From NCBI GenBank assembly GCA_041661685.1, contig JBAZTY010000002.1, positions 93,126-157,125 of the forward strand: a DNA stretch of 64,000 nucleotides. The letters are read 5' to 3'. A model generated the notes under the pieces. The model was not told where the DNA came from, made no database searches, and was given only the letters and a program-made list of their open reading frames with translations. Shown here piece by piece: positions 3,979 to 50,272 of the stretch. Position numbers and translations under genes: made by a program. The first letter of the stretch is position 1. Every line of letters begins with the position of its first letter. Source of the stretch: Patescibacteria group bacterium. Its GTDB lineage: Bacteria; Patescibacteriota; Patescibacteriia; Patescibacteriales; UBA12465.

Positions 3979-4013
3979 AGACAGCTAATTTAAAAATTGA
4001 TAAAGCGCCTATC

Positions 4014-4913
4014 ATGCCGGAGTATGAGATAAATAATAATAGATTGAGAGAAGCAGTCATCAGAGTGATTGTTTTCTTCGATTTGTTCGATTATCCTCTG
4101 ACGTCCTACGAAATTTGGGAGCAACTGGATAAAAGAGGGGAATTGACGGAAGTTATAGATCTCTTGAAAGAAGAAATATCTAAATCCATCGCAGTTATCA
4201 ATAGTAAGAACGGCTTTTATTTTTTATCCGGCCGGGATGTTATTATAGCTATAAGGCAAGCGCGCCATAATTACGGCGCTCGGAAAATAAAAATCGCTCG
4301 CCGTTTTGTGCGCCTTTTTTCTTTGCTGCCGGCGGTTAAGATGATTGCGCTAGCTAATTCTCTCGGTCAGAATAATCTGCGCGACGGCAGCGATATTGAT
4401 TTTTTTATAATAAGTTCACCGCGCCGCATCTGGCTGACGCGCTTGTATTGTACCGGTCTGGCTAAGCTCCTGAATCGCCGGCCGCACGCGGAAAACAAGA
4501 AGGATAAGATCTGCTTAAGTTTTTATGCCGCCGCTGATCATCTCTGTCTAGATGACTTGCGCCTCGAAGGTGAAGACCCCTATTTCGATTATTGGCGTCG
4601 TTCTCTGGTTTTATTGTATAATAAGGATAAGACTTATGAACGTTTTTTGGAAGCGAACGGCTTAGCTTCTAAAATATTAGCGACTGAACCGAAAATATTT
4701 GTAAAGTCTAGGATGTTTTTAGATAAATTGGAATTTCTCGCTAAGAAAATCCAACTGGCTATTATGCCTGAAGAACTGAGGTCGGTTATGAATAACTCTG
4801 ACGGCGTGGTCATCAATGATTCAATCTTAAAACTTTATCGGCGCGATCGACGCCGGGAATACGCAGAAAAATATGGAAACAAAGTTGACAAAATCCTTAA
4901 AGAAGATAATTGA
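4014..4913 (+). CDS. hypothetical protein with Pol-beta-type nucleotidyltransferase-like motif
   Basis: 299-aa ORF. LANSLGQNNLRDGSDIDFFIISS resembles the hG[GS]..x..D.D signature of minimal nucleotidyltransferases. No other motif recognised. Confidence 0.5.
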   Translation: MPEYEINNNRLREAVIRVIVFFDLFDYPLTSYEIWEQLDKRGELTEVIDLLKEEISKSIAVINSKNGFYFLSGRDVIIAIRQARHNYGARKIKIARRFVRLFSLLPAVKMIALANSLGQNNLRDGSDIDFFIISSPRRIWLTRLYCTGLAKLLNRRPHAENKKDKICLSFYAAADHLCLDDLRLEGEDPYFDYWRRSLVLLYNKDKTYERFLEANGLASKILATEPKIFVKSRMFLDKLEFLAKKIQLAIMPEELRSVMNNSDGVVINDSILKLYRRDRRREYAEKYGNKVDKILKEDN

Positions 4914-21546: not shown

Positions 21547-21557
21547 ATTAAAATTTT

Positions 21558-24500
21558 GTGAATAAAAAAGCAGTAAAAAATTTATTAGTCTTCTCCCTCT
21601 TGAGCCTCGGCTTGTTGGCGGCCAATTTCGCTTTGGCTCAGAATCTAGGTACTAATGAAGTCAGCACCGGTTTAGCCGGATCGTTGAGCTCAACTGATCC
21701 GCGTACTATTATTGGCCGGATAATTAATATCGCTTTAGGATTTTTGGGCGTAATCGCTGTCGGGCTGACTATCTATGCCGGTTTCTTATGGATGACTTCT
21801 AATGGTGATGAAGAAAAAGTTGAGATGGCTAAGAAAGTTTTGCGTAATAGTTTAATCGGCCTAGCCATCATCCTATCATCTTGGGCAATAGCGTCTTTTA
21901 TTATTTCTCGTCTTAGCGGCGCTGTTAACGGAACAAATGGCGGCTGTATTGATGGTGAGAGCATGTCTTGCGGCTGCGGCGGCGCGATGGTCTGCAGCAG
22001 TGGTTCTTATGGGTCGTGTGTCGGCTCTGATTGCAGCGGCGGCACAGGCAATGCTCCGACTAGTTGCGATTCCAGTACTCTGCCTGGCTGTCAGGCGGCC
22101 GCCCAAATCTGCGCTTCGACCGATTATTGTGATACCGATGATTGCGGCTGCAAACCGAAAGGAAATCTAGGCGATCCTTGCGATAGTGATCTGACCAATG
22201 CTTCCTGTGATGTTGATAATGGCCGCTGCTCTGAATATCTGACTTGCAATCCCTCAACTTGCACTTGCTATGGCCCCCCAGTCATAACCGCGATCAGCCC
22301 CGTCGGCGGTTTCTGCGATAGCAATCCTAATCAGACTTGCGCGGTTGATACTGACTGCGCGACAACTTGCAACCAGACGGCGCCGAATGGCACGGCCGGA
22401 AACTTCATTACCATTATTGGTAAGAATTTCGGCGCTTATTCAGCGACCTCAAGCCGAATAATCTTTGAAGGTAACGGCAGTCCGCGCGATGGTCAGAAGC
22501 CGGTAGAACTTAATTCCGCCTGTGTTGATACTTGGCGCGATAATGAGATTGTTATTGCCGTTCCGAGCGGCGTTGCCACCGGAGATATTAAAGTTATTAA
22601 TGCCGATAATCTTGAAGATACAACTAATAATTCATATGGCCCGGCGATCCCTGATTTTCAGGCGAACAATATTGCCCGCCCAGGCTTATGTTATCTGAAT
22701 CCTGATCGAGGCGCTTTAAGTTCGCAGATTGGTTATCAGGGGATAAATTTGTATTCCGGCAACGCTTACTTCGGCAGTTATCAGAGCAATGTCCAAGCTT
22801 TGAGCTCTGTCTTCAATAATACTGCCGGATTGACCGGAACCTCGACGATTCCGAATATCAAATCAGGAGAATCTGGCAGCTTCGTTCAGAATAATATTAA
22901 TGGCCATCAAGAGAAGAGTAATTATTTAAGCTTCACTAAGGAATCAGAACCGGGCGAAGGCCCTTTCATCTCTTCATTCGCTCCGATCGAAGGCAACGCT
23001 GGACAATATGTGACTATCAGAGGCAACGGTTTCGGCGGCGCGCGCGGCACCTCGCAGATTTTTTTCGGCAATACTGAAGCCGCCTATGATTTTCCAGACA
23101 TGTGTCTTAATTCGGTCTGGAAAGATAACCAGATCATTGTTAAAGTTCCGGCCGGATTAGCTGATGGCTATCAGGTTATCAAGGTAGTCAAGGGCACGAC
23201 GACTTTAGACACCCAGAAACTTAATCCTAATACTTTTCATTCCGATAAGAATCTAGATTTGTCTACTAGCATTTGCAAAATTGATCCGGAATTTGGTCCA
23301 GCCGCTACGCCGGTCACCCTCTGGGGAGAATATTTTGGTACGCTTAGCAGCGAAGGCCTGATTCACTTTAATTATCAGAAAGCGGCTACGGGAACTATCG
23401 CGAGAGACGGCTGGGCTGATACTATTAAGACTGTCGTTCCTGTCGGTACGATTACCGGTCCGGTCAGAGTCATTAAGAAGAGCCAATGGGGCAATGAATT
23501 GAATTTCGCTATTGGCGAATGTGCCGCTGATTCTGATTGCGGCACTCAGGTCTGCTGCCCGCAGAATACTTATAAAAAAGGACGCTGCGTCAATACGCTG
23601 GCGGATTGTTTCATAAATATCCCGACTTCTGTTTTTGAATGGAGTTTCAGCAGCGGCTTCGGCACTTCAACTCCGAACCCTTACGCCTATAGCTGTTCTG
23701 GTTTAGCTTCATATTTTGGTTCCTGTCAGACCGGCTCGACTTGTCCGAACGTTCCAGGCACTTGTTCTCCTTATGCTGGCGGCGGGACTAGGACTGTCGG
23801 CACTTGCGACTATACTTGCGCGGCCGTCGCGGGTTGCGGCGAATTAGGTTCCAATAATTGCACTTATGATGCCGCGGCGGATAAATGCTTGAAGAATGGC
23901 ACAGGTTCTACCTGCGATTTAGGTTCTACTTTAACGCTTGACGGGAAAGATTATTCTGCTATTTGTAATCAGGATAAGCATTGGGAAATAACTACTCCAT
24001 CATCCTGTCCAATCGGGCAGTCCGGAGATAATTGGACGAGAGCAAGCGGAAATCGCTGTATTAATTTAAGTTCGAATTGCTCTATCTGTTCGTCTGAGTT
24101 CACTTGCGAAGATGTTTCCGGAGCCGGCCGCTGCGTTTCTAAAAAAATCTGTCCGAGCGGCGCGACTTGTTCTGATAATCCTAATGCCGGCGAAGCCGAT
24201 AATTGCGTCGTTCCTGATCAGCCGACCTGCGATTGCTGCTGTACCATTGGCCAAGACGCGCGCGATTGCTGCGCTCCTCTAACTTGCCAAGGAACTTGCG
24301 GCTCCGATACTGGCAAGACTAGCGGCGCGACTTTAGGAAGCTGCGGCGGCTGCGCTGCTGTCGGCACGACTGCAGCTGAACATGACGCGGCCTGTAATTG
24401 TACTGGTCATGAAGGTCAATTCTGCAGCACCGGTAATCCCGCTTTTCCGGCTGGCGTCTGTACTGATTGTTCTAACCTCAGCGCTTCAGAATGTACCGAT

Positions 24501-27380
24501 CATAGCAATGCTTGCTGCTTAGATTCTAAGAAGACTGCGACTGCGGCTGATGATATTTGTCGCGGCGGCAACGGCTTATTGATTTCTTCTACTCCGGGTA
24601 ATGCTAATTATGGCTATTGCGCTTATTATGACTGTTCGGTTTCTAATCCTAATCAATGCGCCTCTTCGACTCCAGTTAAGATCGGTAATTATCCTAGTCT
24701 GGCTGCCTGCGCCGACGATTGTGCGAATGCCAATCCGTGTACCGGCCTTGATTTTACCGCCTGCCAAGCGAATTCCCGGTGCTGTTTTGACTCTAAGAAT
24801 ACTCCGGCGGTAAATGATGACGCTTGTTCTTTGGGTACGCCGATTTTAGGCGGCGCCGATGCTGGTTATTGCTCTTATTATAATTGCGATACTTCGTCAG
24901 ATCACGTTTTTGTCGGTAATGTTTGCGCTAGCACGACGCCGGCGCGGTTAGGAACTTTTAATAATTTAGCTTCTTGCGATAAGACTTGCGCCAATCCGCC
25001 GGTCGGTCCTGGCCTTTATTGCGCCGGACAGGCGACCTCGACCTGTTCGACCGATGCTTGTACCTTCGAAGGTTTCGGCTGCTTCTCACCGAGCGGGCTC
25101 TTAGGTTCTCAGGATATAGACTGCGGCACTTGCTGCTGCCAGCCGGTCGGAGTCAATGGCAACACGACTGATTCCTGCGCGGCTATGAATCCCAAACTGC
25201 AGTGCCTGGCTGATAAAGGCAATTGTTCCGGCGCCAGCCGAGGCTTATGCTGCGGTTGCTCCAGCGATAACGAATGCGGCTCGCCTTCTACGGTCGGTTG
25301 CGGTATTGATACTTGTTGTGAAGCGCGTCCGGCGATAACTAGTATCGTACCTGCCCATATGCAGGAAGACGTCTGCCGCAACGCTGTCATTCAGATTAAT
25401 TTCAACCAATCAATGGATACTAGCAGCTTGGTCGACAACACCATGTTGCTAGAGGAGCGCGCCTATGGAAGCGGCGTCTGTCCGGCGGGAACTTTCATAG
25501 CGGAAGCTGATTCAATTTCTAGTTTGTTGGCTCATAAGAACCGGAGTTTCCTAACCCGTTTGATTAGCCGCTTTGAAAGTAGATGGAAGGTGATAGTTAA
25601 GAATTTTTCTAATCAAGCTTTAGCTGACACTCCTAATCAGAATAACCTTTATTGCGCCATACCAGGAGCAGCTACGGGAGAAATTAACGGAGAGACGACC
25701 GTGGTATCTTTTACCCCCAAGAAGTTGTTGGCCGCCGCTTCTAATTATTACCTGATAGTTCTAGGCGATGCCAACTTGAATAGCCAATCCGGCGTGCTTA
25801 GCGCTGCCGGCATAGGATTCAATGGTCTCGGCTATTTTAATATCGATACCGCTGCCTATATACCCGGCGGCAGCATTAAGTTTAATAATAAGAGCTATGT
25901 TAATTCTCAGATATTTAAGTTTTCGACTTTGTCTGATCAAGGGCCGATGGCCGGGATCTGCGCTATTGATTATGTTAAGACATCACCATCTTCTTACCTC
26001 TTCAATACTACCGATAACGGATTGAATGAAAATGACGCGGATGCCGGCGACAAGACTTTTGACACAGTCGTTGATAAAGATAAGGTTTTTACGGCTCAAG
26101 CCTATAGCGGCGGCGGCCAGCCAATCCAGCCGACGACTGGATATTTCTGGATTTGGAATTTCCAAGTTAACAATCCGGCGGTGGCTGCCATTATTCCAGT
26201 TTCCGGATTGGCGAAAAATAAGGTTTTCGTTTCCGCGGTGAACGGGGTGACTGATGCCGAGACGCAGGTCAAAGCGACCGTCAATATGGATAGCTTCACC
26301 GCCGCTTCGTGCAACGGCGATAACTGCGCTTGCACCGATGAAACCTGCTCTAATAATTGCTGTAATGCTTATTCCGGCGGCAATGGCTATAATAATCCGG
26401 CCGATCTTTATGTCTTCTCATGCCAGAATCCTTGGCCGCCGGTTGCTAATAACGGCCTGTGGTCTCCTTGGGCTGATAATTGCGCTAATTTTATCGGTGG
26501 CGCTTGCGCTACCTACAATTATAAATTTTATTATTGCCGCGACGCCGGAACTTCCGGAACTTTGGATGATTTGCCGGCTATAATCAATCGCGCGGTCATC
26601 CGCGGGCAAGGATCCAGTCTCATTTGCAGTTCCGACCGCAGCACCTGTTCCGTAAGCGGAGCGGTCTGCGGCGTCGATAAGAATGGAGATGGCTCTCCTG
26701 ACGGTCTATGCATTTGGAACGTCTTGAAAGAATCTTATTTTTTCCGCGAGGCCGCTACTTCCGGCGGAACGATAACTAGCGCCACCGATCTCCAAACCGG
26801 CGGCGCTGTGACAATCGCCTGGACCTCCGCCGTCAGCCAGGTCGGCTCCTACAAGATTTATTATCTGAAGTCTAATAAAGGAACGATGCTGGAAAAAGCG
26901 ATTCCTCTCAGTTCTTGTTCTCTCGTCTCCTATCAATCCGATCACGTCGGAGATGTCTATAACTGCAACGCGACTATCACCGGCTTGGCTAATGATGTTC
27001 CTTATGTCTTCAAGGTCAGTGTGGTTTCCGATAATAAAGTTGAGAGTCCGTTATCTTCAGAGAAGAATGTAACTCCGACCGACAAAACTCCGCCGCCGGC
27101 TCCTGTGAGCTTAAGAGCCGTGGTTTCTACTACGACCGTCGCTTTCAGCTGGGCTACTTCTTCTGATGCCGTCCTCTATCGCCTTTATCATGGCATCAAG
27201 CCCGGCGCTTATGGGGAATCTTTTGATTCGGCTAGCGGTGCGGCGAATCTGTCTTTTGACGCCGGCCAATTCTCGTTGAACAGCGATTATTTTGCTGTGG
27301 CGGCACTTGACCAGTATAAGAACGAGAGCGCTAAATCAAAAGAATTATTCTGTATCAACAGCCAGTGTTCGTTGCAATAG
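21558..27380 (+). CDS. 1940-aa secreted giant protein: pilin-like N-terminal module, IPT/TIG-like repeats, very Cys-rich core, Ig-like and FN3 domains
   Basis: GTG start. The N-terminus is paralogous to the 898-aa protein. IPT-like units are present (PVITAISPVGG..GNFITIIGKNFG; PFISSFAPIEGNAGQYVTIRGNGFGG; ICKIDPEFGPAATPVTLWGEYFG). A Cys-dense centre follows (DCCCTIGQDARDCCAPLTCQGTCGSD, CGTCCCQP). The C-terminus is FN3-like (PPPAPVSLRAVVSTTTVAFSWATSSDAVLYRLYHG). Confidence 0.85.
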   Translation: MNKKAVKNLLVFSLLSLGLLAANFALAQNLGTNEVSTGLAGSLSSTDPRTIIGRIINIALGFLGVIAVGLTIYAGFLWMTSNGDEEKVEMAKKVLRNSLIGLAIILSSWAIASFIISRLSGAVNGTNGGCIDGESMSCGCGGAMVCSSGSYGSCVGSDCSGGTGNAPTSCDSSTLPGCQAAAQICASTDYCDTDDCGCKPKGNLGDPCDSDLTNASCDVDNGRCSEYLTCNPSTCTCYGPPVITAISPVGGFCDSNPNQTCAVDTDCATTCNQTAPNGTAGNFITIIGKNFGAYSATSSRIIFEGNGSPRDGQKPVELNSACVDTWRDNEIVIAVPSGVATGDIKVINADNLEDTTNNSYGPAIPDFQANNIARPGLCYLNPDRGALSSQIGYQGINLYSGNAYFGSYQSNVQALSSVFNNTAGLTGTSTIPNIKSGESGSFVQNNINGHQEKSNYLSFTKESEPGEGPFISSFAPIEGNAGQYVTIRGNGFGGARGTSQIFFGNTEAAYDFPDMCLNSVWKDNQIIVKVPAGLADGYQVIKVVKGTTTLDTQKLNPNTFHSDKNLDLSTSICKIDPEFGPAATPVTLWGEYFGTLSSEGLIHFNYQKAATGTIARDGWADTIKTVVPVGTITGPVRVIKKSQWGNELNFAIGECAADSDCGTQVCCPQNTYKKGRCVNTLADCFINIPTSVFEWSFSSGFGTSTPNPYAYSCSGLASYFGSCQTGSTCPNVPGTCSPYAGGGTRTVGTCDYTCAAVAGCGELGSNNCTYDAAADKCLKNGTGSTCDLGSTLTLDGKDYSAICNQDKHWEITTPSSCPIGQSGDNWTRASGNRCINLSSNCSICSSEFTCEDVSGAGRCVSKKICPSGATCSDNPNAGEADNCVVPDQPTCDCCCTIGQDARDCCAPLTCQGTCGSDTGKTSGATLGSCGGCAAVGTTAAEHDAACNCTGHEGQFCSTGNPAFPAGVCTDCSNLSASECTDHSNACCLDSKKTATAADDICRGGNGLLISSTPGNANYGYCAYYDCSVSNPNQCASSTPVKIGNYPSLAACADDCANANPCTGLDFTACQANSRCCFDSKNTPAVNDDACSLGTPILGGADAGYCSYYNCDTSSDHVFVGNVCASTTPARLGTFNNLASCDKTCANPPVGPGLYCAGQATSTCSTDACTFEGFGCFSPSGLLGSQDIDCGTCCCQPVGVNGNTTDSCAAMNPKLQCLADKGNCSGASRGLCCGCSSDNECGSPSTVGCGIDTCCEARPAITSIVPAHMQEDVCRNAVIQINFNQSMDTSSLVDNTMLLEERAYGSGVCPAGTFIAEADSISSLLAHKNRSFLTRLISRFESRWKVIVKNFSNQALADTPNQNNLYCAIPGAATGEINGETTVVSFTPKKLLAAASNYYLIVLGDANLNSQSGVLSAAGIGFNGLGYFNIDTAAYIPGGSIKFNNKSYVNSQIFKFSTLSDQGPMAGICAIDYVKTSPSSYLFNTTDNGLNENDADAGDKTFDTVVDKDKVFTAQAYSGGGQPIQPTTGYFWIWNFQVNNPAVAAIIPVSGLAKNKVFVSAVNGVTDAETQVKATVNMDSFTAASCNGDNCACTDETCSNNCCNAYSGGNGYNNPADLYVFSCQNPWPPVANNGLWSPWADNCANFIGGACATYNYKFYYCRDAGTSGTLDDLPAIINRAVIRGQGSSLICSSDRSTCSVSGAVCGVDKNGDGSPDGLCIWNVLKESYFFREAATSGGTITSATDLQTGGAVTIAWTSAVSQVGSYKIYYLKSNKGTMLEKAIPLSSCSLVSYQSDHVGDVYNCNATITGLANDVPYVFKVSVVSDNKVESPLSSEKNVTPTDKTPPPAPVSLRAVVSTTTVAFSWATSSDAVLYRLYHGIKPGAYGESFDSASGAANLSFDAGQFSLNSDYFAVAALDQYKNESAKSKELFCINSQCSLQ
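21639..21918 (+). repeat. pilin-like N-terminal module, copy 2
   Basis: See 18946-19225. Roughly two thirds of the residues are identical by eye over about 95 aa. Confidence 0.8.
24472..24998 (+). repeat. tandem ~85-aa Cys-rich module (two copies) inside the 1940-aa ORF
   Basis: Copy A is ..CTDHSNACCLDSKKTATAADDICRGG..GYCAYYDCSVSNPNQCASSTPVKIGNYPSLAACADDCAN. Copy B is ..CQANSRCCFDSKNTPAVNDDACSLG..GYCSYYNCDTSS..CASTTPARLGTFNNLASCDKTCAN. Confidence 0.75.
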
Positions 27381-27398
27381 TCCATTCGAACCGGCCAA

Positions 27399-27407
27399 CC
27401 CCCCCCC
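27399..27407 (+). repeat. C9 homopolymer in the intergenic region upstream of the 982-aa surface protein
   Basis: ccggccaaCCCCCCCCCatt: nine consecutive C, ending 27 nt before the ATG at 27435. Confidence 0.95.
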
Positions 27408-27434
27408 ATTAAAAGCTTACTAGTTTGTTAATAT

Positions 27435-30383
27435 ATGATAAAAAAATATAAATTATTGCTCTTGGGGGCAGCGATTATCGTCGTCTTGTTTTCAGCCGCC
27501 ATCAAGCGATCTCAAGCGCAGACGGCAGCTTCCCCGGCTGACGGATCCGATGCTATCGCCGTGCGCATTATTCCTAACCCTAATCATTATAGCATCGTCC
27601 GCTGGTACGAGAGCCAGGGTTTTATTGGAGCGCCGCAAGCATTGACTGTCGATGGTTATGAAGCCATCAGGGATGGCCGGACTGTTTACGTCAACGCCGC
27701 TAATGTTAATCCTTCTTCGCGGACCATCTATACTAATATTTATCTGATTTCTTATAATCAGGACTCGACTGAGAAAACTGTCGATATCTTAGGTCAGATA
27801 GTCGCGCACTGGAAATTTAATAATAATATCATCGAGAGCGCTAATCCGGTTCCAGATTGTTCTATTTCTGCCGTGTCCTGTAATTTAGACGCGGATTGCG
27901 GCCAGGATCAGTATTGCGCCACTTCTTCGGCCGGCATCGCCTCTAGTTCCTGTTTATTGAAGAAAGCTAAGAATTGCCTGGTAGATACCGATTGTCCGAA
28001 TAGTCTCTTTTGTAATAGCGTCAAATCCAAAATTACCCGTGATATTAAGAGAGTCGGCCAGCTGGAAGAATTGAAGGAAGCTTTGTATAATTTCAAAAAA
28101 CGTAATAATTATTATCCCCGTTTGTCCTCGGGAACATATCTGGCTAACAATAGCTTGTCGGTCTGGCCGAGTTGGACTCAGTCTTTGCTGTCCGAGGTGG
28201 CCGTTAGTCAAAGCTTTACCGATCCGATTAATCGTCTAGGTGTCTGTCTCGGATATGACGCTAAAACTTGCTGGAATCCTGATTTGAAAAAATTCGTCTA
28301 TAGTCCGACTAACACGACTTTGACTCTGCCAACCGGAAGCTATGCCTTTGCCTATTCTACCGACAGCAACGGTTCTAACTATAACCTCTGCGCAGTTATG
28401 GAAAGCCGCGCGGCTAATCTCGGCTATCACTTTTTGCCGAATGATCCGATAAGTTCCGCTTGCGTGACCGCGACTGGAATAATTTCCGGAGGACATGCCC
28501 AGAATACTGCCCCGCAATTAGTCGATCAATTCTTGGTTGGACAGGCTAACCGCGAATTCAGCGGATTCTTGAAAGTCGTCGACGCGGAAGACAACCCGCT
28601 GGTCTGGTCTATCAGCGGTCCGTCATGGATCAGTCTGCAGGATACGAGCGACCCGACGCAGAAGAAGGTCTATGCTTCGAGCGCGTCTACGCCCGGAACA
28701 TATAATTTGACTCTGACCGTTACCGATGGCTCAGGTGGAACCCTCTCTACTACTACTAGGATAACCATCCTAGCTGACGCGCCGCGCATCGAAGCGGCTG
28801 ATGCGGAATATGTTTTGGATCCGAAGGTGCCATTTAATTATAATTTTACTTTTTCCAGTAAGAATTTAAATAATCCGGCGACAGCTTACACCGTAACCAA
28901 GACTTCTGGCTTACCCGATGTCTTGAATATCCTCGATTCTTCACATACTTTTACTCCGTTGGTTAATAATAGTTATAAGAGCGCTTATACCGGCATCATC
29001 CCGACTATCAATAAATTCTATCAAGATACTAGCGTCAATTATCGGATAAATCTGACTGATAAGAATGGGGTCGTCTATCCCAAAACTTTTAATATCAAGA
29101 TTATCGTGGAGCAACCGCAACTGAATTTCGATTGTCTAACTCAGGCGCGTATCAATAATGATTATTCTTGCCTATTAGGTTCAAAGACCCAGGGCAACCA
29201 TACCCTGTCATACGGAGCCCGTGATCTGCCGCCGGGGCTAGCTTTGACAGGCACGAGCGACGCGCTGATTTCCGGCCGTCCGACCATCCTCTCTCCCGGA
29301 TATTCGATAAATATTAAGACCACTAATGAATACGGAGCTTCTACTTCCAGGGCTTTTATCTTGAAAATCAATAATTATTGTGGCGACGGGAAAATACAGG
29401 CGCCTAATACTGAAGGACGCGGCGGAGTCCATAATGATGGCTATGAAGATTGCGATGGCGCCGCTGGGACTACTTCGAATATATCGACTAGCAGCGCGAT
29501 CCAATATGGCTGCCGGACCGGAGTCGGCTCAACTGTCCCTAATCCGATTCTGACTAACACCTACTGCGTCTTTAAGTCTCCTACAGATGGTGGCGGCTAT
29601 TGTGGCGACGGCTATTGCCAGTCTGGCATATTGCCGACCGGTCCAGAATCGGCTTGTAATTGCGTCCAAGATTGCGGCGAGCCCGTCGGCGACCAATGTG
29701 TTTGTAAGTACACTTATACGAACTGGAGTGCTTGTCAGAGCGATCACTTACAGACCAGAACCTTGTTAACCACCCTGCCTGGTGGTTGCACAGGAACCCC
29801 GGTCACGAGCCAGACCTGCGCCACCTGTGTTTATACTTATTCTGCTTGGGGAGCCTGCCAGAGCGATCATACGCAAACAAGGACGGTAACGAGCGTTTTG
29901 CCGAGTGTCTGTTATGGCGCTCCGGTCACGAGCCAGACCTGTGTCTGTAATAATAACGGCATCTGCGACACTAATGAGAATATCGCTTCTTGCTCGGGTG
30001 ATTGCCCGGTCGTTATTCCTAGCGTCTGTGGCGATGGTGTCTGCAACGGTAGCGAAACTGCTTTGAGCTGCAAGGTAGACTGCCTTCGCATCATCAAGTA
30101 TGTCTGCGGCGACGGTCTTTGCGATATAGCCTCCGGGGAAACCGCCTCTTCTTGTCCTAGCGATTGCGATACCACTCCCTCGACCTACTGCGGCGATGGC
30201 GTCTGCAACGGAGAGGAAACTTGCTATAACACTTCTACCAGTTTCGGCTGTCTCGAAGATTGTGATTATTGTGTAATTTCCGGCTGCGCCATATTTGATA
30301 ATAACCCGCCGAAATGTGTGCCACCGTGCTTATGGGATGATATTACCGATAGGTGCGATAGTGCTATCTATTCTGCGCAATAA
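27435..30383 (+). CDS. 982-aa secreted/anchored protein with Ig-like region and C-terminal TSP1-like and CGDG Cys-rich repeats
   Basis: N-terminal signal/anchor MIKKYKLLLLGAAIIVVLFSAAI. The central region is Ig/cadherin-like (PLVWSISGPSWISL .. TYNLTLTVTDGSGG). The C-terminal third is Cys repeats. Confidence 0.8.
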   Translation: MIKKYKLLLLGAAIIVVLFSAAIKRSQAQTAASPADGSDAIAVRIIPNPNHYSIVRWYESQGFIGAPQALTVDGYEAIRDGRTVYVNAANVNPSSRTIYTNIYLISYNQDSTEKTVDILGQIVAHWKFNNNIIESANPVPDCSISAVSCNLDADCGQDQYCATSSAGIASSSCLLKKAKNCLVDTDCPNSLFCNSVKSKITRDIKRVGQLEELKEALYNFKKRNNYYPRLSSGTYLANNSLSVWPSWTQSLLSEVAVSQSFTDPINRLGVCLGYDAKTCWNPDLKKFVYSPTNTTLTLPTGSYAFAYSTDSNGSNYNLCAVMESRAANLGYHFLPNDPISSACVTATGIISGGHAQNTAPQLVDQFLVGQANREFSGFLKVVDAEDNPLVWSISGPSWISLQDTSDPTQKKVYASSASTPGTYNLTLTVTDGSGGTLSTTTRITILADAPRIEAADAEYVLDPKVPFNYNFTFSSKNLNNPATAYTVTKTSGLPDVLNILDSSHTFTPLVNNSYKSAYTGIIPTINKFYQDTSVNYRINLTDKNGVVYPKTFNIKIIVEQPQLNFDCLTQARINNDYSCLLGSKTQGNHTLSYGARDLPPGLALTGTSDALISGRPTILSPGYSINIKTTNEYGASTSRAFILKINNYCGDGKIQAPNTEGRGGVHNDGYEDCDGAAGTTSNISTSSAIQYGCRTGVGSTVPNPILTNTYCVFKSPTDGGGYCGDGYCQSGILPTGPESACNCVQDCGEPVGDQCVCKYTYTNWSACQSDHLQTRTLLTTLPGGCTGTPVTSQTCATCVYTYSAWGACQSDHTQTRTVTSVLPSVCYGAPVTSQTCVCNNNGICDTNENIASCSGDCPVVIPSVCGDGVCNGSETALSCKVDCLRIIKYVCGDGLCDIASGETASSCPSDCDTTPSTYCGDGVCNGEETCYNTSTSFGCLEDCDYCVISGCAIFDNNPPKCVPPCLWDDITDRCDSAIYSAQ
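29695..29946 (+). repeat. tandem duplication encoding two thrombospondin-type-1-like units
   Basis: The two units are CKYTYTNWSACQSDHLQTRTLLTTLPGGCTGTPVTSQTC and CVYTYSAWGACQSDHTQTRTVTSVLPSVCYGAPVTSQTC. A 20-nt identical core ccggtcacgagccagacctg ends both units. Confidence 0.8.
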
Positions 30384-44564: not shown

Positions 44565-44593
44565 TTGACCGGACATTTGAATTTTGCTAAAAT
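44565..44593 (+). promoter_or_regulatory. sigma70-like promoter of the nrdR-nrdD-nrdG operon
   Basis: TTGACC (44565-44570), 17-nt spacer, TAAAAT (44588-44593). Confidence 0.5.
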
Positions 44594-44602
44594 AGCTATA
44601 AG

Positions 44603-44618
44603 ACACAACATTTAGTGG
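44603..44618 (+). promoter_or_regulatory. NrdR box 1
   Basis: acacaacatttagtgg matches 13/16 positions of the NrdR-box consensus as I recall it (acaCwAtATaTwGtgt). It starts 10 nt after the -10 element. Confidence 0.6.
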
Positions 44619-44634: not shown

Positions 44635-44650
44635 CCACAAAATATAGGGT
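44635..44650 (+). promoter_or_regulatory. NrdR box 2
   Basis: ccacaaaatatagggt matches 13/16 positions. Start-to-start distance to box 1 is 32 bp, the phasing typical of tandem NrdR boxes. Confidence 0.6.
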
Positions 44651-44660
44651 TTATCAATAT

Positions 44661-45119
44661 ATGAAATGCCCCATCTGTTATTTCCCAGACACTAAGGTGG
44701 TCGACTCTCGAGTCGCCCCGGACGGGCTGTCTATCCGCCGTCGCCGCGAATGCTTGAAATGTGGCTTTCGTTTCTCGACTTACGAGGAAATTGAGCTGTT
44801 AGATCTGGTTATCATGAAACGGGACGGACGAAGAGAGTCATATAGCCGGGAAAAAATGGTCAGCGGTTTGAAAAAGTCTTGCGAAAAGAGGCCTATTACC
44901 GAAGACCGCTTCAAAAAACTGATTCATTCCATTGAAAGAGACCTGCAACGCCTGAAAAAGACGGAGATAACTTCCCGTCAGATAGGACAAGCCGTGATGA
45001 AGAACTTGAAGAAGGTCGATCCGGTCGCTTATATCCGTTATGCCTCGGTTTATGAATCCTTCAAGGATGCGCATGAATTCCGCAAGGAACTGAATAAGCT
45101 TATAAATGAAAAGAAATAA
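44661..45119 (+). CDS. nrdR: transcriptional repressor NrdR
   Basis: The zinc ribbon MKCPICYFPDTKVVDSR .. RRRRECLKCGFRFSTYE, then an ATP-cone. Confidence 0.96.
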   Translation: MKCPICYFPDTKVVDSRVAPDGLSIRRRRECLKCGFRFSTYEEIELLDLVIMKRDGRRESYSREKMVSGLKKSCEKRPITEDRFKKLIHSIERDLQRLKKTEITSRQIGQAVMKNLKKVDPVAYIRYASVYESFKDAHEFRKELNKLINEKK

Positions 45120-47175
45120 TATTATGTCCGAAACTATCAGCAAGTTAATCAAAAGATCCGGCGAAATCGTCGACTTTGATCAGGATAAGATCAGTAAGGC
45201 TATTTATAAGGCTGGTTTAGCGGTGGGCGTTGATGATCGCCATCTGGCGAAGAAGCTGACTGATCAGGTCGCGATGCGTTTGAATCAGAAATTCCATAAG
45301 AACAGCATTCCGGCGGTTGAAGAAGTCCAGGATATCGTGGAAGAGATATTGATCGAGAGCAAATTGATTAAGATCGCTAAAGCTTATATCTTATATCGTG
45401 ACCAGCATCGCCAATTGCGCGATATTAATACCTCTACTTCAGATGATAAACTTTTAGAAGACTATCTGGGCCGGGCTGATTGGCGCTTGAAAGAGAATAG
45501 CAATATGAGTTTTTCTGTCCAGGGTTTGAATAATTATATTGCTTCTTCTATCTCCGCTCGTTATTGGCTTAATAAGATGTATCCGGAAAATATTCGCGCC
45601 GCTCATATCAACGGTGATATTCATATCCATGATTTAGGTCTGCTGGCTCCTTATTGCTGCGGCTGGGATCTGAAGGACTTATTATTGCGCGGCTTTCGCG
45701 GCGTTAGCGAAAAAGTTCAAAGCAATGCGCCGAAACATTTTCGGAGCGCGTTAGGCCAGATTATTAATTTCTTCTATACTCTTCAGGGTGAAGCGGCTGG
45801 CGCCCAGGCTTTCGCTAATTTCGATACCTATCTCGCGCCGTTTATCCGTTATGATAATTTGAGTTTCAAGGAGGTTAAACAAGGCTTGCAGGAATTCATG
45901 TTCAATATCAATGTCCCGACCCGCGTCGGCTTCCAGACTCCGTTTACGAATATCACGCTCGACGTGACTCCGTCCCCGATGATCGGCGAAGAGAACGTCA
46001 TTATTGGCGGTGAAGTCATGTCAGAAAAATATAAGGATTTTCAGCCGGAAATGGATATGTTCAATCAGGCTTTCGCCGAAGTCATGCTGGCCGGCGATTC
46101 TTCCGGACGCGTCTTTGGCTTCCCGATTCCGACTTATAATATCGATAAAGATTTTGATTGGGATAGAGAATGTTTGAAACCGGCCTGGGAGATGACCGCT
46201 AAATATGGTATTCCTTATTTCTCTAATTTCGTTAATTCCGATATGAATCGCGACGACGCGCGTTCAATGTGCTGCCGCTTGAGGCTTGATAATCGCGAGT
46301 TACGCAAGCGCGGCGGCGGACTGTTCGGCGCTAATCCTTTGACCGGATCTCTCGGAGTTGTGACTCTGAATCTGGCTAGAGTCGGGTATCTGTCTAAGAG
46401 CAAGGAAGAATTCAAAGAACGGATTACTAAATTAATGGAAATTTCTAAAGAGAGCTTAGAGATCAAGCGCAAGATTATCGAGAAGTTTACTGAAGATCGC
46501 CTCTATCCTTACTCAATGTTCTATCTCGAGAATATCAAGGCTCACTTCGGAACCTATTGGAAGAATCATTTTTCGACTATCGGCATCAACGGCATGAACG
46601 AAGCGGCTCTGAATCTGATGGGTAAGGATATCGCCACTCCGGAAGGCCACGCTTTTGCGGCCGAGATCCTTGATTTCATGCGCGAAAAATTAATGGACTT
46701 TCAGAACGAGACCAATAATCTTTATAATTTGGAAGCGACTCCGGGCGAGGGCTGTACCTATCGTTTCGCTAAGAAGGATCAGCAGCTTTATCCGGGCATA
46801 ATCTGTGCTAATACTGAGGCGGTCAAGCGCCAGGGCGCCGACCCGTATTATACGAATTCGACTCATCTGCATGTTAATTTTTCTGATGATATCTTTTCCG
46901 CCCTCGATCTTCAGGACGACTTGCAGACTAAGTACACCGGCGGTACCGTTCTTCACGGTTATTTAGGAGAACGTTTGCCTGACGGCGAAACGGCGAAGAG
47001 ATTGGTCAAGAAGATCGTCGAATCTTATCGCTTGCCTTACTTTACTATCACTCCGACTTTCTCGATCTGCCCGAAGCATGGCTATCTGTCCGGAGAACAT
47101 AAATATTGCCCTAAATGCGATGAGGAAATTGGCTATAAAGAGAGCGTGGCTGAGGTTCGTGCCGTTAATCAGTAA
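45106..47175 (+). CDS. nrdD: anaerobic (class III) ribonucleoside-triphosphate reductase, large piece lacking the glycyl-radical segment
   Basis: N-terminal ATP-cone (LIKRSGEIVDFDQDKISKAIYKA) and an NrdD core (..CCGWDL.., ..SMCCRLRLD.., ..NLEATPGEG..). It ends just after a single CPKC pair and contains no RV.GY-type glycyl radical motif. An alternative ATG lies at 45124. Confidence 0.9.
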   Translation: MKRNNIMSETISKLIKRSGEIVDFDQDKISKAIYKAGLAVGVDDRHLAKKLTDQVAMRLNQKFHKNSIPAVEEVQDIVEEILIESKLIKIAKAYILYRDQHRQLRDINTSTSDDKLLEDYLGRADWRLKENSNMSFSVQGLNNYIASSISARYWLNKMYPENIRAAHINGDIHIHDLGLLAPYCCGWDLKDLLLRGFRGVSEKVQSNAPKHFRSALGQIINFFYTLQGEAAGAQAFANFDTYLAPFIRYDNLSFKEVKQGLQEFMFNINVPTRVGFQTPFTNITLDVTPSPMIGEENVIIGGEVMSEKYKDFQPEMDMFNQAFAEVMLAGDSSGRVFGFPIPTYNIDKDFDWDRECLKPAWEMTAKYGIPYFSNFVNSDMNRDDARSMCCRLRLDNRELRKRGGGLFGANPLTGSLGVVTLNLARVGYLSKSKEEFKERITKLMEISKESLEIKRKIIEKFTEDRLYPYSMFYLENIKAHFGTYWKNHFSTIGINGMNEAALNLMGKDIATPEGHAFAAEILDFMREKLMDFQNETNNLYNLEATPGEGCTYRFAKKDQQLYPGIICANTEAVKRQGADPYYTNSTHLHVNFSDDIFSALDLQDDLQTKYTGGTVLHGYLGERLPDGETAKRLVKKIVESYRLPYFTITPTFSICPKHGYLSGEHKYCPKCDEEIGYKESVAEVRAVNQ

Positions 47176-47238
47176 TTGGTAATCAGTCAATAGCTGATAT
47201 TTGTAATTTAAATAGATATAATTTATAATGATAATAAT

Positions 47239-47376
47239 ATGAGTCCAATACAGACACAAAGACAGGAATGCATCGTCTATAGCCGTGTTGTCGGCTGGCT
47301 TACTCCGGTGAAGAATTATAACCCGGGAAAAGCCGCTGAGTATAAGGACCGGAAGACGTTCAAGGTTTGCGAATAA
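47239..47376 (+). CDS. stand-alone NrdD glycyl-radical C-terminal segment (45 aa; not in the ORF track)
   Basis: MSPIQTQRQECIVYSRVVGWLTPVKNYNPGKAAEYKDRKTFKVCE carries the class III RNR C-terminal signature (ysRv.G[YW]..pv..wN.GK..E...Rk.f). It is in the same frame as nrdD but separated from it by TAA, TAG and TAA. Confidence 0.7.
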   Translation: MSPIQTQRQECIVYSRVVGWLTPVKNYNPGKAAEYKDRKTFKVCE

Positions 47377-47387
47377 ATTAAAAAGCT

Positions 47388-48113
47388 ATGATAATTGGCG
47401 GTTTAGAGAAATTAACCCTTCTTGACTACCCTGATCATCTAGCGGCCATAATCTTCACCCAAGGATGTAATTTCCGTTGCCACTTCTGCTACAACCCTTT
47501 GCTTGTCCTGCCCCTTGAGGGAGGGGACGAAAAAAATAAAAAAGAAAAAGGTTTTTCCGCGATTTCCCATGAAGACCTTTTTCTTTTTTTAACGGAAAGA
47601 TTCGGCCGCCTGGAAGGAGTCGTCATCACCGGCGGGGAGCCGACTCTGCACCCCGACCTGCCCGACTTCATCAGGAAGATCAAAGAGATCGGTTATCTCG
47701 TAAAATTAGATACGAACGGCACTAATCCCGACATGCTCGCCGGGCTTATTAAGGCTAAGCTCATCGACTATATCGCCATGGATTTGAAGGCGCCTTTAGC
47801 GAGATATAGCGAGGTTGTCGGCGTGAGTCTCGACTGTAAAAATATCGAAAAAAGTGTTAAGATGATAATTGAGAGCGGTTTACCCTATGAATTCCGGACG
47901 ACCGTCGTTCCCGGTTTGCTTAGCCAGGATGATTTTGAAGCGATGGGCAAATCTATCCAGGGAGCCAAAAAATGGTATCTCCAGAATTTTAAATCTGATA
48001 CTGGATTAGTTGATAATGATTTTAAGGAGAAGCCCGGTTATAGCTCTAAAGAGATGGCGGAGTTCGCCGCTATCGGCCGCAAGCACGTGGATCTTTGCGA
48101 GGTGCGCGGATAA
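47388..48113 (+). CDS. nrdG: anaerobic ribonucleotide reductase activating protein (radical SAM)
   Basis: LLDYPDHLAAIIFTQGCNFRCHFCYNP (CxxxCxxC) and VVITGGEPTL. Confidence 0.9.
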   Translation: MIIGGLEKLTLLDYPDHLAAIIFTQGCNFRCHFCYNPLLVLPLEGGDEKNKKEKGFSAISHEDLFLFLTERFGRLEGVVITGGEPTLHPDLPDFIRKIKEIGYLVKLDTNGTNPDMLAGLIKAKLIDYIAMDLKAPLARYSEVVGVSLDCKNIEKSVKMIIESGLPYEFRTTVVPGLLSQDDFEAMGKSIQGAKKWYLQNFKSDTGLVDNDFKEKPGYSSKEMAEFAAIGRKHVDLCEVRG

Positions 48114-48122
48114 CTTTATAAT

Positions 48123-48362
48123 ATGTCGGAAATAAATAAGATAGAATTAGAAAAATTAGAAGGATTATTGCAAGATAATCTTAAGAGCAGCGCGGAAGTG
48201 CTTCAGGCCGTCAATTCCATCAAGAAGTATATACGCTGGCAGCAGGTTTGGAGTACGCTGCGCTTCTTCCTTATCGCTGTTCCGATTGCCCTCGGCTTCA
48301 TTTATCTCCCGCCGCTTATAAAAGACGCGCTCCAGAGCTATAAGACTTTCCTCATTAACTAA
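48123..48362 (+). CDS. hypothetical small membrane protein
   Basis: 79 aa with a coiled N-terminus and one TM helix (LRFFLIAVPIALGFIYLPPLI). Confidence 0.5.
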   Translation: MSEINKIELEKLEGLLQDNLKSSAEVLQAVNSIKKYIRWQQVWSTLRFFLIAVPIALGFIYLPPLIKDALQSYKTFLIN

Positions 48363-48391: not shown

Positions 48392-50272
48392 ATGCAGGAT
48401 ATTGCGGTCTTCGCTCAGACAACTTATCGCAACGAATTCAAAAGATTCGGAATTAAGACCGACGACCGCCGCCGGCATATGTATTTGATTGGGAAAACAG
48501 GCATGGGCAAATCCACTATCCTAGAAAATATGATTGTGGATGATATTCGTGCCGGGCATGGCGTTGCCGTTGTCGATCCGCATGGTGATCTGGCTGAAAA
48601 GATTATCGAGTTCATCCCTGAAGACCGGATCAAGGACGTCGTTTATTTTAATCCGTCGGATATAAATTTTCCGATTGCTTTTAACGTCGTGGAGCAAGTC
48701 GAGCCGCATCTGCGTCATCTCGTCGCTTCCGGTCTGATCGGCGTCTTCCAGAAATTATGGGCGGATTCTTGGGGCCCTCGTTTGGAATATATTTTGCGCA
48801 ACGCTATCTTGGCGATTCTGGATTTTCCCGGTTCGACGATTTTGGGCGTCGTGCGCATGCTGTCCGATAAGAATTACCGCAAGCGCGTCGTTGCTAACAT
48901 TAAAGACCCAGTGGTCAAGGCTTTTTGGGAGAAGGAATTTTCCGGTTATGCTGATAAGTTCGCTTCCGAGGCCGTTTCTCCTATTCAGAATAAGGTTGGT
49001 CAATTTTTATCCAGCTCTTTGATGAGAAATATTATTGGTCAGGTAAGGTCATCCATTGATATCCGCGAAATCATGGATAATGGCAAGATCTTGATTATGA
49101 ATTTATCTAAGGGCCGCATCGGCGAAGATAATTCGGCCTTGTTAGGCGCGATGATGATTACGAAGATTCAATTAGCGGCCATGAGCCGCGTTGATATTCC
49201 GGAAAAAGAACGCCGTGATTTTTTCTTATACATTGACGAATTTCAGAATTTTTCAACCGACAGTTTCGCTAATATCTTATCGGAAGCCCGTAAATATCGC
49301 TTGAGTTTGATTTTAGCGCATCAGTATATCGAACAACTGAGCGAGAAAGTTAAGCCGGCTGTTTTCGGCAATGTCGGCACGATGGTTGTTTTTCGGGTCG
49401 GCGCGGCTGACGCTGAAGAGCTGGTTAAAGAATTCACTCCGACTTTTACCGAAGAAGATATTGTTAATCTGCCTAAGTATGAGATGTATCTGAAATTGAT
49501 GATCGACGGCATTTCTTCTTCGCCTTTTTCGGCCAAAGGCTTGCCGCCGCTCACAGAAGCGGAAAAGACAGGCAACACTCAGAAGGTGATTGATTATTCT
49601 CGCGAGCATTATGCTTCCGACAGGGAATCGGTCGAAGAAAAGATTATGAGCTGGCATGAGAATACCGGAGAAGAAACTGCGCCTACTCCAGTTCTAGCTT
49701 CGACGTCGGCTTATCGCGCATCAAACCCGGTCGCTGCGCCAGATCATTCTTTTCCTGCTCCGGCCGCCGTTCCAGTTCCGCGTCCCGCGCAATCTTTCCA
49801 ACCTTCGGCTCCTGCTCCAGTTTCGCCAGCTTCGCCCCGTCCAGCCTTGAAGAAAGCGACTGTCGGCGGCTATACGGCTATCTGTAATTCTTGCGGCCAA
49901 GAAACAACAACTGTCTTTGAACCGGATGGAGTCCGCCCGGTCTATTGCCGCGATTGTCTCAGTAAAAAAAAAGAAGAGAAACGCCAGGATCTAGAAAAGC
50001 GTCAATTAGCCAAGATAGAAGAAAGGCGCCGCGTCGATGAGGTAGATAAGAAGAAAGAGAACATCCCGACCTTGTCTCTCAGCGATTTGACAAAAGTAGC
50101 GCCGCGCGATTTTCGCGGCCGTGAAATAAAAGCTAGGCCGGCCGCGGCGACAGCCCCAGCTCCAGCCAAAAAAGAACAAAAGTCTTCCGACTGGAAAGAT
50201 ATCCCTTTCCCCGAACTTCCTTATAAGGAGATGGAATTGAAAGAAGACGAAGACATCACTCTTAAGAATTGA
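48392..50272 (+). CDS. VirD4/TraG/TraD-like (T4SS coupling-protein-type) ATPase with C-terminal CxxC..CxxC zinc ribbon
   Basis: Walker A LIGKTGMGKSTI, Walker B FFLYIDEFQNF, and LILAHQYIEQL. A Pro/Ala-rich linker leads to CNSCGQETTTVFEPDGVRPVYCRDC. Confidence 0.75.
   Translation: MQDIAVFAQTTYRNEFKRFGIKTDDRRRHMYLIGKTGMGKSTILENMIVDDIRAGHGVAVVDPHGDLAEKIIEFIPEDRIKDVVYFNPSDINFPIAFNVVEQVEPHLRHLVASGLIGVFQKLWADSWGPRLEYILRNAILAILDFPGSTILGVVRMLSDKNYRKRVVANIKDPVVKAFWEKEFSGYADKFASEAVSPIQNKVGQFLSSSLMRNIIGQVRSSIDIREIMDNGKILIMNLSKGRIGEDNSALLGAMMITKIQLAAMSRVDIPEKERRDFFLYIDEFQNFSTDSFANILSEARKYRLSLILAHQYIEQLSEKVKPAVFGNVGTMVVFRVGAADAEELVKEFTPTFTEEDIVNLPKYEMYLKLMIDGISSSPFSAKGLPPLTEAEKTGNTQKVIDYSREHYASDRESVEEKIMSWHENTGEETAPTPVLASTSAYRASNPVAAPDHSFPAPAAVPVPRPAQSFQPSAPAPVSPASPRPALKKATVGGYTAICNSCGQETTTVFEPDGVRPVYCRDCLSKKKEEKRQDLEKRQLAKIEERRRVDEVDKKKENIPTLSLSDLTKVAPRDFRGREIKARPAAATAPAPAKKEQKSSDWKDIPFPELPYKEMELKEDEDITLKN

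Follow-up and report, generated by a model that had tools for sequence, protein, structure and literature searches.

We analyzed a 64,000-nucleotide (nt) stretch of DNA from a Patescibacteria group bacterium (assembly GCA_041661685.1, contig JBAZTY010000002.1, positions 93,126 to 157,125 of the forward strand), here called the window, and found its class III ribonucleotide reductase (RNR) to be encoded in two pieces. The large gene, nrdD-L, stops after the zinc ribbon, and a separate gene of 45 codons, nrdD-S, encodes the glycyl-radical loop (Gly loop). The two cistrons are conserved and co-inherited, and they stand beside the activase gene nrdG. From comparative sequence analysis, the locus very probably represents a real and stable fission of class III RNR, i.e., an enzyme that obligately consists of two polypeptides.

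The large subunit nrdD-L (45124..47175, + strand) comprises an ATP-cone, the catalytic barrel and a C-terminal zinc ribbon. It matched NCBIfam NF006126 with 1027.7 bits (cut-off 548) over profile positions 3–664 of 684 and Pfam NRDD (PF13597) with E 1.2e-181 over profile positions 1–529 of 562. The ATP-cone was matched as well, and class II RNR models matched nrdD-L at the ATP-cone only. Its profile match, zinc ribbon, ATP-cone and activase place the window enzyme among the class III RNRs of the NF006126 type. As the initial annotation had stated, the open reading frame (ORF) ends soon after the zinc ribbon, with a TAA at 47173–47175 (C-terminal end ...FSICPKHGYLSGEHKYCPKCDEEIGYKESVAEVRAVNQ), 18 residues past the last Cys of the ribbon and without the Gly loop. 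The RVxG[YFW] motif is not on nrdD-L, which ends before profile position 530; RVVGW is found on the ORF at 47239–47376. Two details of that annotation needed revision. The 689 residues given for NrdD correspond to the longest ORF, starting at 45106; the true start is likely the ATG at 45124, as in most homologues, which gives 683 residues beginning with MSETISK. Moreover, the CPKC noted at the zinc ribbon is present, but the first ligand pair is C-x2-H, so that the site reads CPKH...CPKC. Its ligands C649, H652, C662 and C665 are invariant in an alignment of 36 homologues. The segment SMCCRLRLD with C383 and C384 is also invariant among nrdD-L homologues and, by sequence alone, is a candidate for the thiyl-radical cysteine loop. 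The same truncation was found throughout the 120 closest large subunits (85–100% identical), which have 671–703 residues, barring one entry of 631 residues and three intein-bearing ones of about 1000 residues.

The small ORF (47239..47376, + strand) encodes the peptide MSPIQTQRQECIVYSRVVGWLTPVKNYNPGKAAEYKDRKTFKVCE with the Gly loop YSRVVGW...NPGK..E..DR. It matched Pfam NRDD at positions 530–562 of 562 (E 3.8e-7, 29.6 bits, above the cut-off of 26.2). NRDD was its sole Pfam match at E ≤ 0.1, and the Pfam family Gly_radical was not matched. With NRDD positions 1–529 on the large and 530–562 on the small piece, the two are exactly complementary and jointly make up one NrdD. The NCBIfam result is consistent with this, and the ORF thus is the glycyl-radical segment missing from nrdD, as had been claimed for it. 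Alignment with an intact NrdD of known structure, that of Thermotoga maritima (4COI), led to the same view: chain residues 100–610 align to nrdD-L residues 161–673 and chain residues 616–645 to nrdD-S residues 14–42. The gap extends only from 610 to 616, and we hence conclude that the cut lies in a link of about five residues between zinc ribbon and radical loop and that no structural element was lost. Gly19 of nrdD-S (GGC codon, 47293..47295) falls on the G of YMRIVGY, at chain position 621 of the T. maritima NrdD as counted from the alignment, and is predicted to be the radical-bearing glycine. It is invariant in both small-protein alignments. In the alignment of 30 sequences, the invariant positions are M1, R16, V17, V18, G19, W20, N28, G30, K31, E34, D37 and R38. 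A search with nrdD-S found 140 proteins; all of the 120 matches listed were stand-alone proteins of 41–69 residues with 68–100% identity.

We also considered that the tail of nrdD-L, ESVAEVRAVNQ, might be a degenerate copy of the Gly loop and thus the relic of a duplication, as NCBIfam and BLAST alignments continue into this tail. Profiles of the small protein gave no match to the 78 large-subunit tails of the related loci described below (hmmsearch, best E 2.5), and the tails are variable, down to three residues after the EEIGY of CPKCDEEIGY. The duplication was rejected as unsupported.

nrdD-L and nrdD-S belong to a cluster of four ORFs at 44661–48113, all on the + strand, in the order nrdR, nrdD-L, nrdD-S, nrdG. 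The first, nrdR (44661..45119), encodes the transcriptional repressor of nrd genes (Pfam Zn_ribbon_NrdR, 4.5e-20; ATP-cone, 9.2e-19) and is placed identically in related loci. The last, nrdG (47388..48113), begins 11 nt 3' of the nrdD-S ORF and encodes the radical S-adenosylmethionine (radical-SAM) activating enzyme, with 206.8 bits to TIGR02495 NrdG2 (cut-off 131.15) and a match to Pfam Radical_SAM. It occupies the same place in relatives.

To assess orthologous loci, we scanned one genome per GTDB species and obtained 372 relatives, of which the best 80 loci (75–98% identical, mostly labelled Falkowbacteria or Patescibacteria) were examined. Two of them stop at a contig edge and 78 were assessable. 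All 78 contain a separate small ORF, including those on the closed chromosomes OW818634.1 and CP066698.1, and nrdD-L always adjoins the peptide and nrdG. The exact 45-residue sequence was found on 19 public contigs. Six of these, from NCBI, ENA and Logan assemblies and including an 895-kb chromosome, all have the order nrdD (683 residues), small ORF, nrdG, with nrdR upstream in five and with spacers of 63, 64, 66 or 67 nt. Nucleotide identity among relatives was 41% in the spacer, compared with 75% in the small ORF.

nrdD-S is under strong purifying selection. For its first 41 codons in 75 loci, the proportion of synonymous differences (pS) was 0.79, i.e., near saturation, and that of nonsynonymous differences (pN) was 0.11; from unsaturated pairs we obtained a median ratio of nonsynonymous to synonymous rates (dN/dS) of about 0.07. 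Both pieces diverged at an equal rate, with mean p-distances of 0.159 for nrdD-S and 0.173 for the core of the large subunit. In a Mantel test, distances of large and small genes were correlated with r = 0.665, and none of 2000 permutations reached a value as high. The large and small genes evolve as one unit.

The intercistronic spacer (47176..47238, + strand) has the 63 nt and the AT-rich composition described initially (17% G+C), and both ORFs are in the same frame in the window. A consensus scan found two overlapping sigma-70-like promoter matches in it (47194..47229, + strand), CTGATA-17-TATAAT and TTGTAA-17-TATAAT, which end 10–17 nt 5' of the nrdD-S ATG. Exact TATAAT occurs in 51 of the 78 related spacers, compared with about 21 expected from shuffles, although the loci are related to each other and the excess is a hint rather than a statistical test. 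These matches may constitute an internal promoter for nrdD-S and nrdG. A Shine-Dalgarno-like 4-mer was found within 20 nt upstream of only one of 43 gene starts in the window (1–64000); the missing Shine-Dalgarno site before nrdD-S is therefore normal here. Several window genes, e.g., at 2857, 15593, 48123 and 52535, have a TATAAT within about 15 nt of their ATG, and this suggests that leaders are very short or absent in this organism. nrdD-S is predicted to be translated independently, from its own conserved ATG.

Upstream of nrdR, a promoter-like site TTGACC-17-TAAAAT with a TG lies at 44565–44593. Downstream of it are two imperfect palindromes, ACACAACATTTAGTGG (44603–44618) and CCACAAAATATAGGGT (44635–44650), 32 bp apart from centre to centre, which, as read by eye, we take to resemble tandem NrdR boxes. 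A search with the strict NrdR-box consensus gave no match at up to three mismatches.

The split is also found far from the Patescibacteria. A profile of the peptides, run against 1.84 billion cluster representatives, gave 4320 matches at E ≤ 1e-3 and 543 at E ≤ 1e-10. Nearly all of the top 150 are proteins of 47–115 residues with a Met start and without a zinc ribbon; fragments of fused NrdDs account for only two or three. When a profile built from 135 diverse peptides was used in a word-indexed search, the best 120 of at least 8000 candidates all had 44–79 residues, and source names include Thermoplasmatota and Diapherotrites archaea. Gene arrangements vary. In locus L088, AAGGAGGTG stands 5 nt 5' of the small-ORF ATG, and the first 32 nt of the small ORF, read in a different frame, coincide with the end of the large ORF; three independent contigs show this arrangement. 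An archaeal locus (L096) has a GGAGGTG site and a TAATG stop/start overlap, with genes for TBP, Rpb4, L21e and AglB as neighbors. The spacer is 8 nt in a Thermoplasmatota metagenome-assembled genome (L094), where the large subunit bears an intein. In L087 the order is nrdD-L, nrdG, small gene, and CCAAGGAGGAAAGTAAATG precedes the small gene.

A scan of metagenome contigs with a DNA pattern for the Gly-loop motif gave at least 600 stretches, and we classified the best 80 loci. In rough proportions, NrdD was fused in 30 and split in 24, the small ORF adjoining a truncated nrdD-L; the latter comprise 18 loci with the order large, small, nrdG, four with large, nrdG, small and two at contig ends. 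One locus combined a fused NrdD with an extra stand-alone module, seven had a small ORF and no nrdD-L in the 2.2 kb or more upstream of it, and 18 were undecidable. Fused and split states are clearly both common. P0346, a fragment of a fused NrdD, shares 55% identity with the large and 70% with the small piece of the window; only a few residues lie between its C-x2-C and EVYSRVVGY. Overall, the split is kept across hundreds of uncultivated bacteria and archaea. Of the three readings that the initial annotation had offered for the locus, i.e., a genuine RNR of two polypeptides, an insertion scar and gene decay, the first has held up, given that split, start Met and peptide are kept in 78 of 78 relatives, with purifying selection, co-divergence and recurrence in distant lineages. 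The other two, of which decay had already been disfavored in that annotation, are rejected on this evidence.

NrdD-type Gly loops are evidently also used as free-standing modules in loci outside the window. Locus L170 (1494–3918, metagenome contig Ga0209340_1000228) encodes ftsZ, an intact NrdD of 714 residues and, after 5 nt, an ORF of 92 residues with zinc ribbon and Gly loop, followed by nrdG. The two 32-residue Gly-loop cores of this locus are identical as proteins and differ at 13 of 96 nt; all 13 differences are synonymous and none is nonsynonymous. The second module looks like a GrcA-like duplicate under selection, i.e., a spare module for class III RNR.

Relatives of the peptide are also encoded by viruses. 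In IMG/VR we found 362 such viral contigs and examined the best 80 loci (L181–L260). Orphan Gly-loop ORFs of 43–156 residues from stop to stop, with neither nrdD-L nor nrdG within about 4 kb, were present in 50 of them (e.g., L182:~4001-4120, L209:3989-4117, L224:3986-4138 and L187:4001-4138). Their neighbors are tail-fibre, baseplate, terminase, portal and RecE-like genes. PHROGs gave no functional family for the viral Gly-loop peptides, which could represent a new auxiliary gene class. We consider it close to an even chance that NrdD-type peptides form a widespread exchangeable radical-cofactor module, which would be the sole radical site in split RNRs, a duplicate beside the intact NrdD of L170, and in tailed phages an orphan auxiliary gene whose product plugs into or rescues the host enzyme during infection.

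Some further free-standing modules were observed. The archaeal virus ANMV-1 (KP703175.1, L097:2686-3120) encodes a lone protein of 144 residues, AJP62049.1, with an extended zinc ribbon and an NrdD-type Gly loop. Its annotation reads anaerobic RNR, but no catalytic-subunit gene lies nearby. P0275 and P0351 are similar zinc ribbon and Gly loop proteins of 105–115 residues. Four metagenome loci (L105, L106, L112 and L113) contain stand-alone Gly-loop ORFs of 110–153 residues from stop to stop, and neither nrdD nor nrdG lies within about 3 kb of them. Two of these loci, L105 and L113, were read in detail; their DNA is cellular-looking and comparatively G+C-rich. The ORFs of the four loci may represent spare modules encoded apart from their enzyme.

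Drawing on what is established biochemically for homologues, we propose how the two polypeptides would work together. NrdG would abstract a hydrogen from Gly19 of nrdD-S. The peptide would dock non-covalently in the barrel of nrdD-L beside the zinc ribbon, i.e., in the slot taken by the covalent loop in one-piece NrdDs, and the glycyl radical on the docked peptide would yield the catalytic thiyl radical at the active-site cysteine. In glycyl radical enzymes, the radical glycine is the site at which oxygen cuts the chain. A detachable 45-mer might therefore make repair cheap: after cleavage, a fresh peptide would replace the damaged one and the 683-residue subunit would be spared. This last step is speculative. 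We offer only tentatively, at somewhat below even probability, that the split persists because the oxygen-labile part has become a cheap, replaceable subunit, with the principle of GrcA/YfiD built in permanently.

Some points weigh against this picture. Evidence for peptide, complex and activity is comparative throughout. An AlphaFold2 prediction of nrdD-L with 36 close homologues had a mean predicted local distance difference test (pLDDT) score of 46.5 and was unusable. Ranking the metagenome loci by likeness to the stand-alone peptide favored stand-alone forms, which makes the proportions of fused and split loci rough. Finally, a replaceable part is one of several possible rationales, and a neutral fission predicts the same conservation pattern.

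Neutral fission is the main rival on the question why the split persists. According to it, the two-polypeptide enzyme works but the split is non-adaptive: the flexible link acquired a stop and a start codon, which were tolerated through tight binding of the loop and have since been inherited and transferred. We regard this as a realistic possibility, well short of even. It agrees with a cut in a short unaligned link, with the variable tail of the large subunit after CPKCDEEIGY, with the coexistence of fused (30) and split (24) loci in one motif-defined subfamily and with the likeness of the fused P0346 to both window pieces. Stand-alone modules such as the L170 duplicate and the phage orphans, however, are not simple fission products and suggest a use of their own, and the enrichment of promoter-like elements in the spacer hints at separate expression.

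The peptide might instead be merely a spare part for a complete NrdD elsewhere in the genome, with nrdD-L inactive or in another role. Such arrangements do exist, as in L170 and in the orphans far from any nrdD. For the window this is very unlikely: nrdD-L is 85–100% identical across species with invariant zinc site and CC motif, adjoins peptide and nrdG in 78 of 78 loci and co-diverges with the peptide. nrdR precedes the cluster, with the NrdR-box-like palindromes just upstream of it, and neither a second RNR gene nor a one-piece NrdD was found within the 64-kb window.

Recoding would yield a single full-length NrdD by read-through, frameshifting or translational bypassing, as in T4 gene 60. 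The initial annotation had stressed that the window ORFs share a frame, 63 nt apart, with three in-frame stops between them. That number includes the TAA that terminates nrdD; the spacer itself contains two in-frame stops, a TAG (47191) and a TAA (47206). The three stops in the shared frame oppose read-through. Across the 78 loci, spacers vary between 11 and 201 nt, and the frame offsets 0, 1 and 2 occur 33:22:23. The in-frame arrangement in the window is therefore a coincidence, and the emphasis on it was misplaced. Stops in all three frames are present in 60 of the 78 spacers, the small-ORF ATG is invariant, and other lineages have strong Shine-Dalgarno sites or nrdG between both genes. Moreover, the window spacer showed nothing unusual in RNA structure (fold z-score 0.10), and Rfam gave no fitting match for it at E ≤ 1. 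From the variation of spacer and frame, we exclude all three kinds of recoding as general mechanisms, and recoding in the window is extremely improbable.

Equally improbable is a post-translational joining of both polypeptides, e.g., by a split intein or another ligase. Inteins do occur in the family, at other positions of the large subunit: P0133, P0162 and P0191, relatives of the window nrdD-L, and L094:1187-4492 are large subunits of 1004–1101 residues, and Intein_splicing was matched in P0133 and L094, the latter also with a faint match to LAGLIDADG_3. Splitting and intein invasion can therefore affect the same nrdD-L gene. At the cut itself, the large subunit offers a tail of 3–30 variable residues and the peptide 8–13 residues ahead of its Gly-loop core, and the halves of a split intein would need more than this. 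No intein motifs were seen there; Pfam gave NRDD alone in the peptide, and neither window ORF contains an intein domain. Lastly, an assembly or sequencing artefact or a decaying pseudogene, for which the metagenome-derived genome and the AT-rich, low-complexity spacer might speak, has a practically negligible probability in view of the identical peptide on 19 contigs from independent assemblies, an architecture common to 78 species, strong purifying selection on both parts and intact nrdG and nrdR.

Other genes in the window were noted in passing. Directly after nrdG lies an ORF of 79 residues with a hydrophobic segment (48123–48362); it has no Pfam match, and its position is kept in the close relatives L001–L004 (79–87 residues). 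A homologue of TrwB/TraG-like coupling proteins with a treble-clef zinc finger (48392–50272) follows 3' of the nrd cluster and is kept there in relatives. Three very large ORFs of 898, 1940 and 982 residues occupy 18850–30383. The 898- and 1940-residue ORFs have an N-terminal T4SS_pilin domain and Ig-like, TIG or fn3 repeats; the 982-residue ORF has a weak Ig-like (He_PIG) match only.

To our knowledge, glycyl radical enzymes are defined by a C-terminal radical glycine on the catalytic chain, with the back-up GrcA/YfiD of pyruvate formate-lyase (PFL) as the only known exception. The window enzyme departs from this definition in that its predicted radical glycine lies off the catalytic chain. 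A full-text literature search, which largely does not extend to subscription journals, found no description of a split class III RNR; we think it unlikely, with a modest remaining chance, that the split has already been noted somewhere. Andorfer et al. (2021) regarded spare parts for other glycyl radical enzymes as possible but unvalidated (PMC8683613), and according to a 2026 review spare-part proteins are known for formate-lyases only (PMC13450708).

If the module is exchangeable, spare-part proteins would be known from a second family of glycyl radical enzymes, class III RNR, which would also be the first to carry its radical on an obligately separate subunit. The locus and its relatives make the spare-part question directly testable for the DNA-precursor enzyme of anaerobes. 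A naturally detached NrdG substrate of 45 residues would give a handle on how the activase gains access to a buried glycine loop and on the repair of oxygen damage. A split fixed in 78 related species of Patescibacteria and found in archaea bears on how small-genome anaerobes cope with oxygen, and the orphan peptides of phages would constitute a novel type of auxiliary metabolic gene. In practice, annotation pipelines either overlook the small piece or give it the same name as the large one, 'anaerobic ribonucleoside-triphosphate reductase', and surveys with a length filter will lose nrdD-S.

The known systems to compare with include interrupted nrdD genes, i.e., the T4 group I intron and NrdD inteins. 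nrdD is often interrupted, and inteins occur in some large subunits of the present family. In contrast, the window junction has neither intron nor intein, the spacer is unconserved and unstructured, and the parts are separate cistrons. The split class II RNR NrdJa/NrdJb of Pseudomonas aeruginosa (PMC9669993, PMC4520616) likewise consists of two adjacent genes, cut near the C-terminal zinc-finger region. Unlike the window RNR, it is B12-dependent and without a glycyl radical, and NrdJb is a folded multi-domain protein; the window catalytic core is an NrdD and not a class II enzyme.

With the one-piece NrdD and NrdG systems of T4, E. coli, T. maritima (4COI/4U3E) and P. copri (8P23), the window shares domain set and order, a NrdG2-type activase, the presence of NrdR and NF006126 as best family. 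In all characterized NrdDs that we know of, the Gly loop and tail form the covalent C-terminus, whereas in the window they are on a separate polypeptide of 45 residues. In P. copri NrdD, the glycyl radical domain comprises residues 676–739, is expected to behave largely as a rigid body and becomes disordered on inhibition by deoxyadenosine triphosphate (dATP) (PMC11226230).

A functional parallel is provided by GrcA/YfiD and T4 Y06I of the PFL system, which the initial annotation had also invoked. YfiD and Y06I are activated by the PFL activating enzyme and complement oxygen-cleaved PFL (PMC8683613). Like nrdD-S, they are small and stand-alone; they carry a radical glycine and act in trans with a large catalytic subunit, as is predicted for nrdD-S; activation by the cognate radical-SAM activase is presumably common to both, and phages encode versions of GrcA-type and NrdD-type peptides alike. 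The analogy is thus apt as a way of working but does not extend to descent: nrdD-S is homologous to NrdD and not to PFL, and it has about 5 kDa compared with about 14 kDa. Moreover, nrdD-L has no Gly loop of its own, so that nrdD-S would be the sole radical site of its enzyme and not a back-up.

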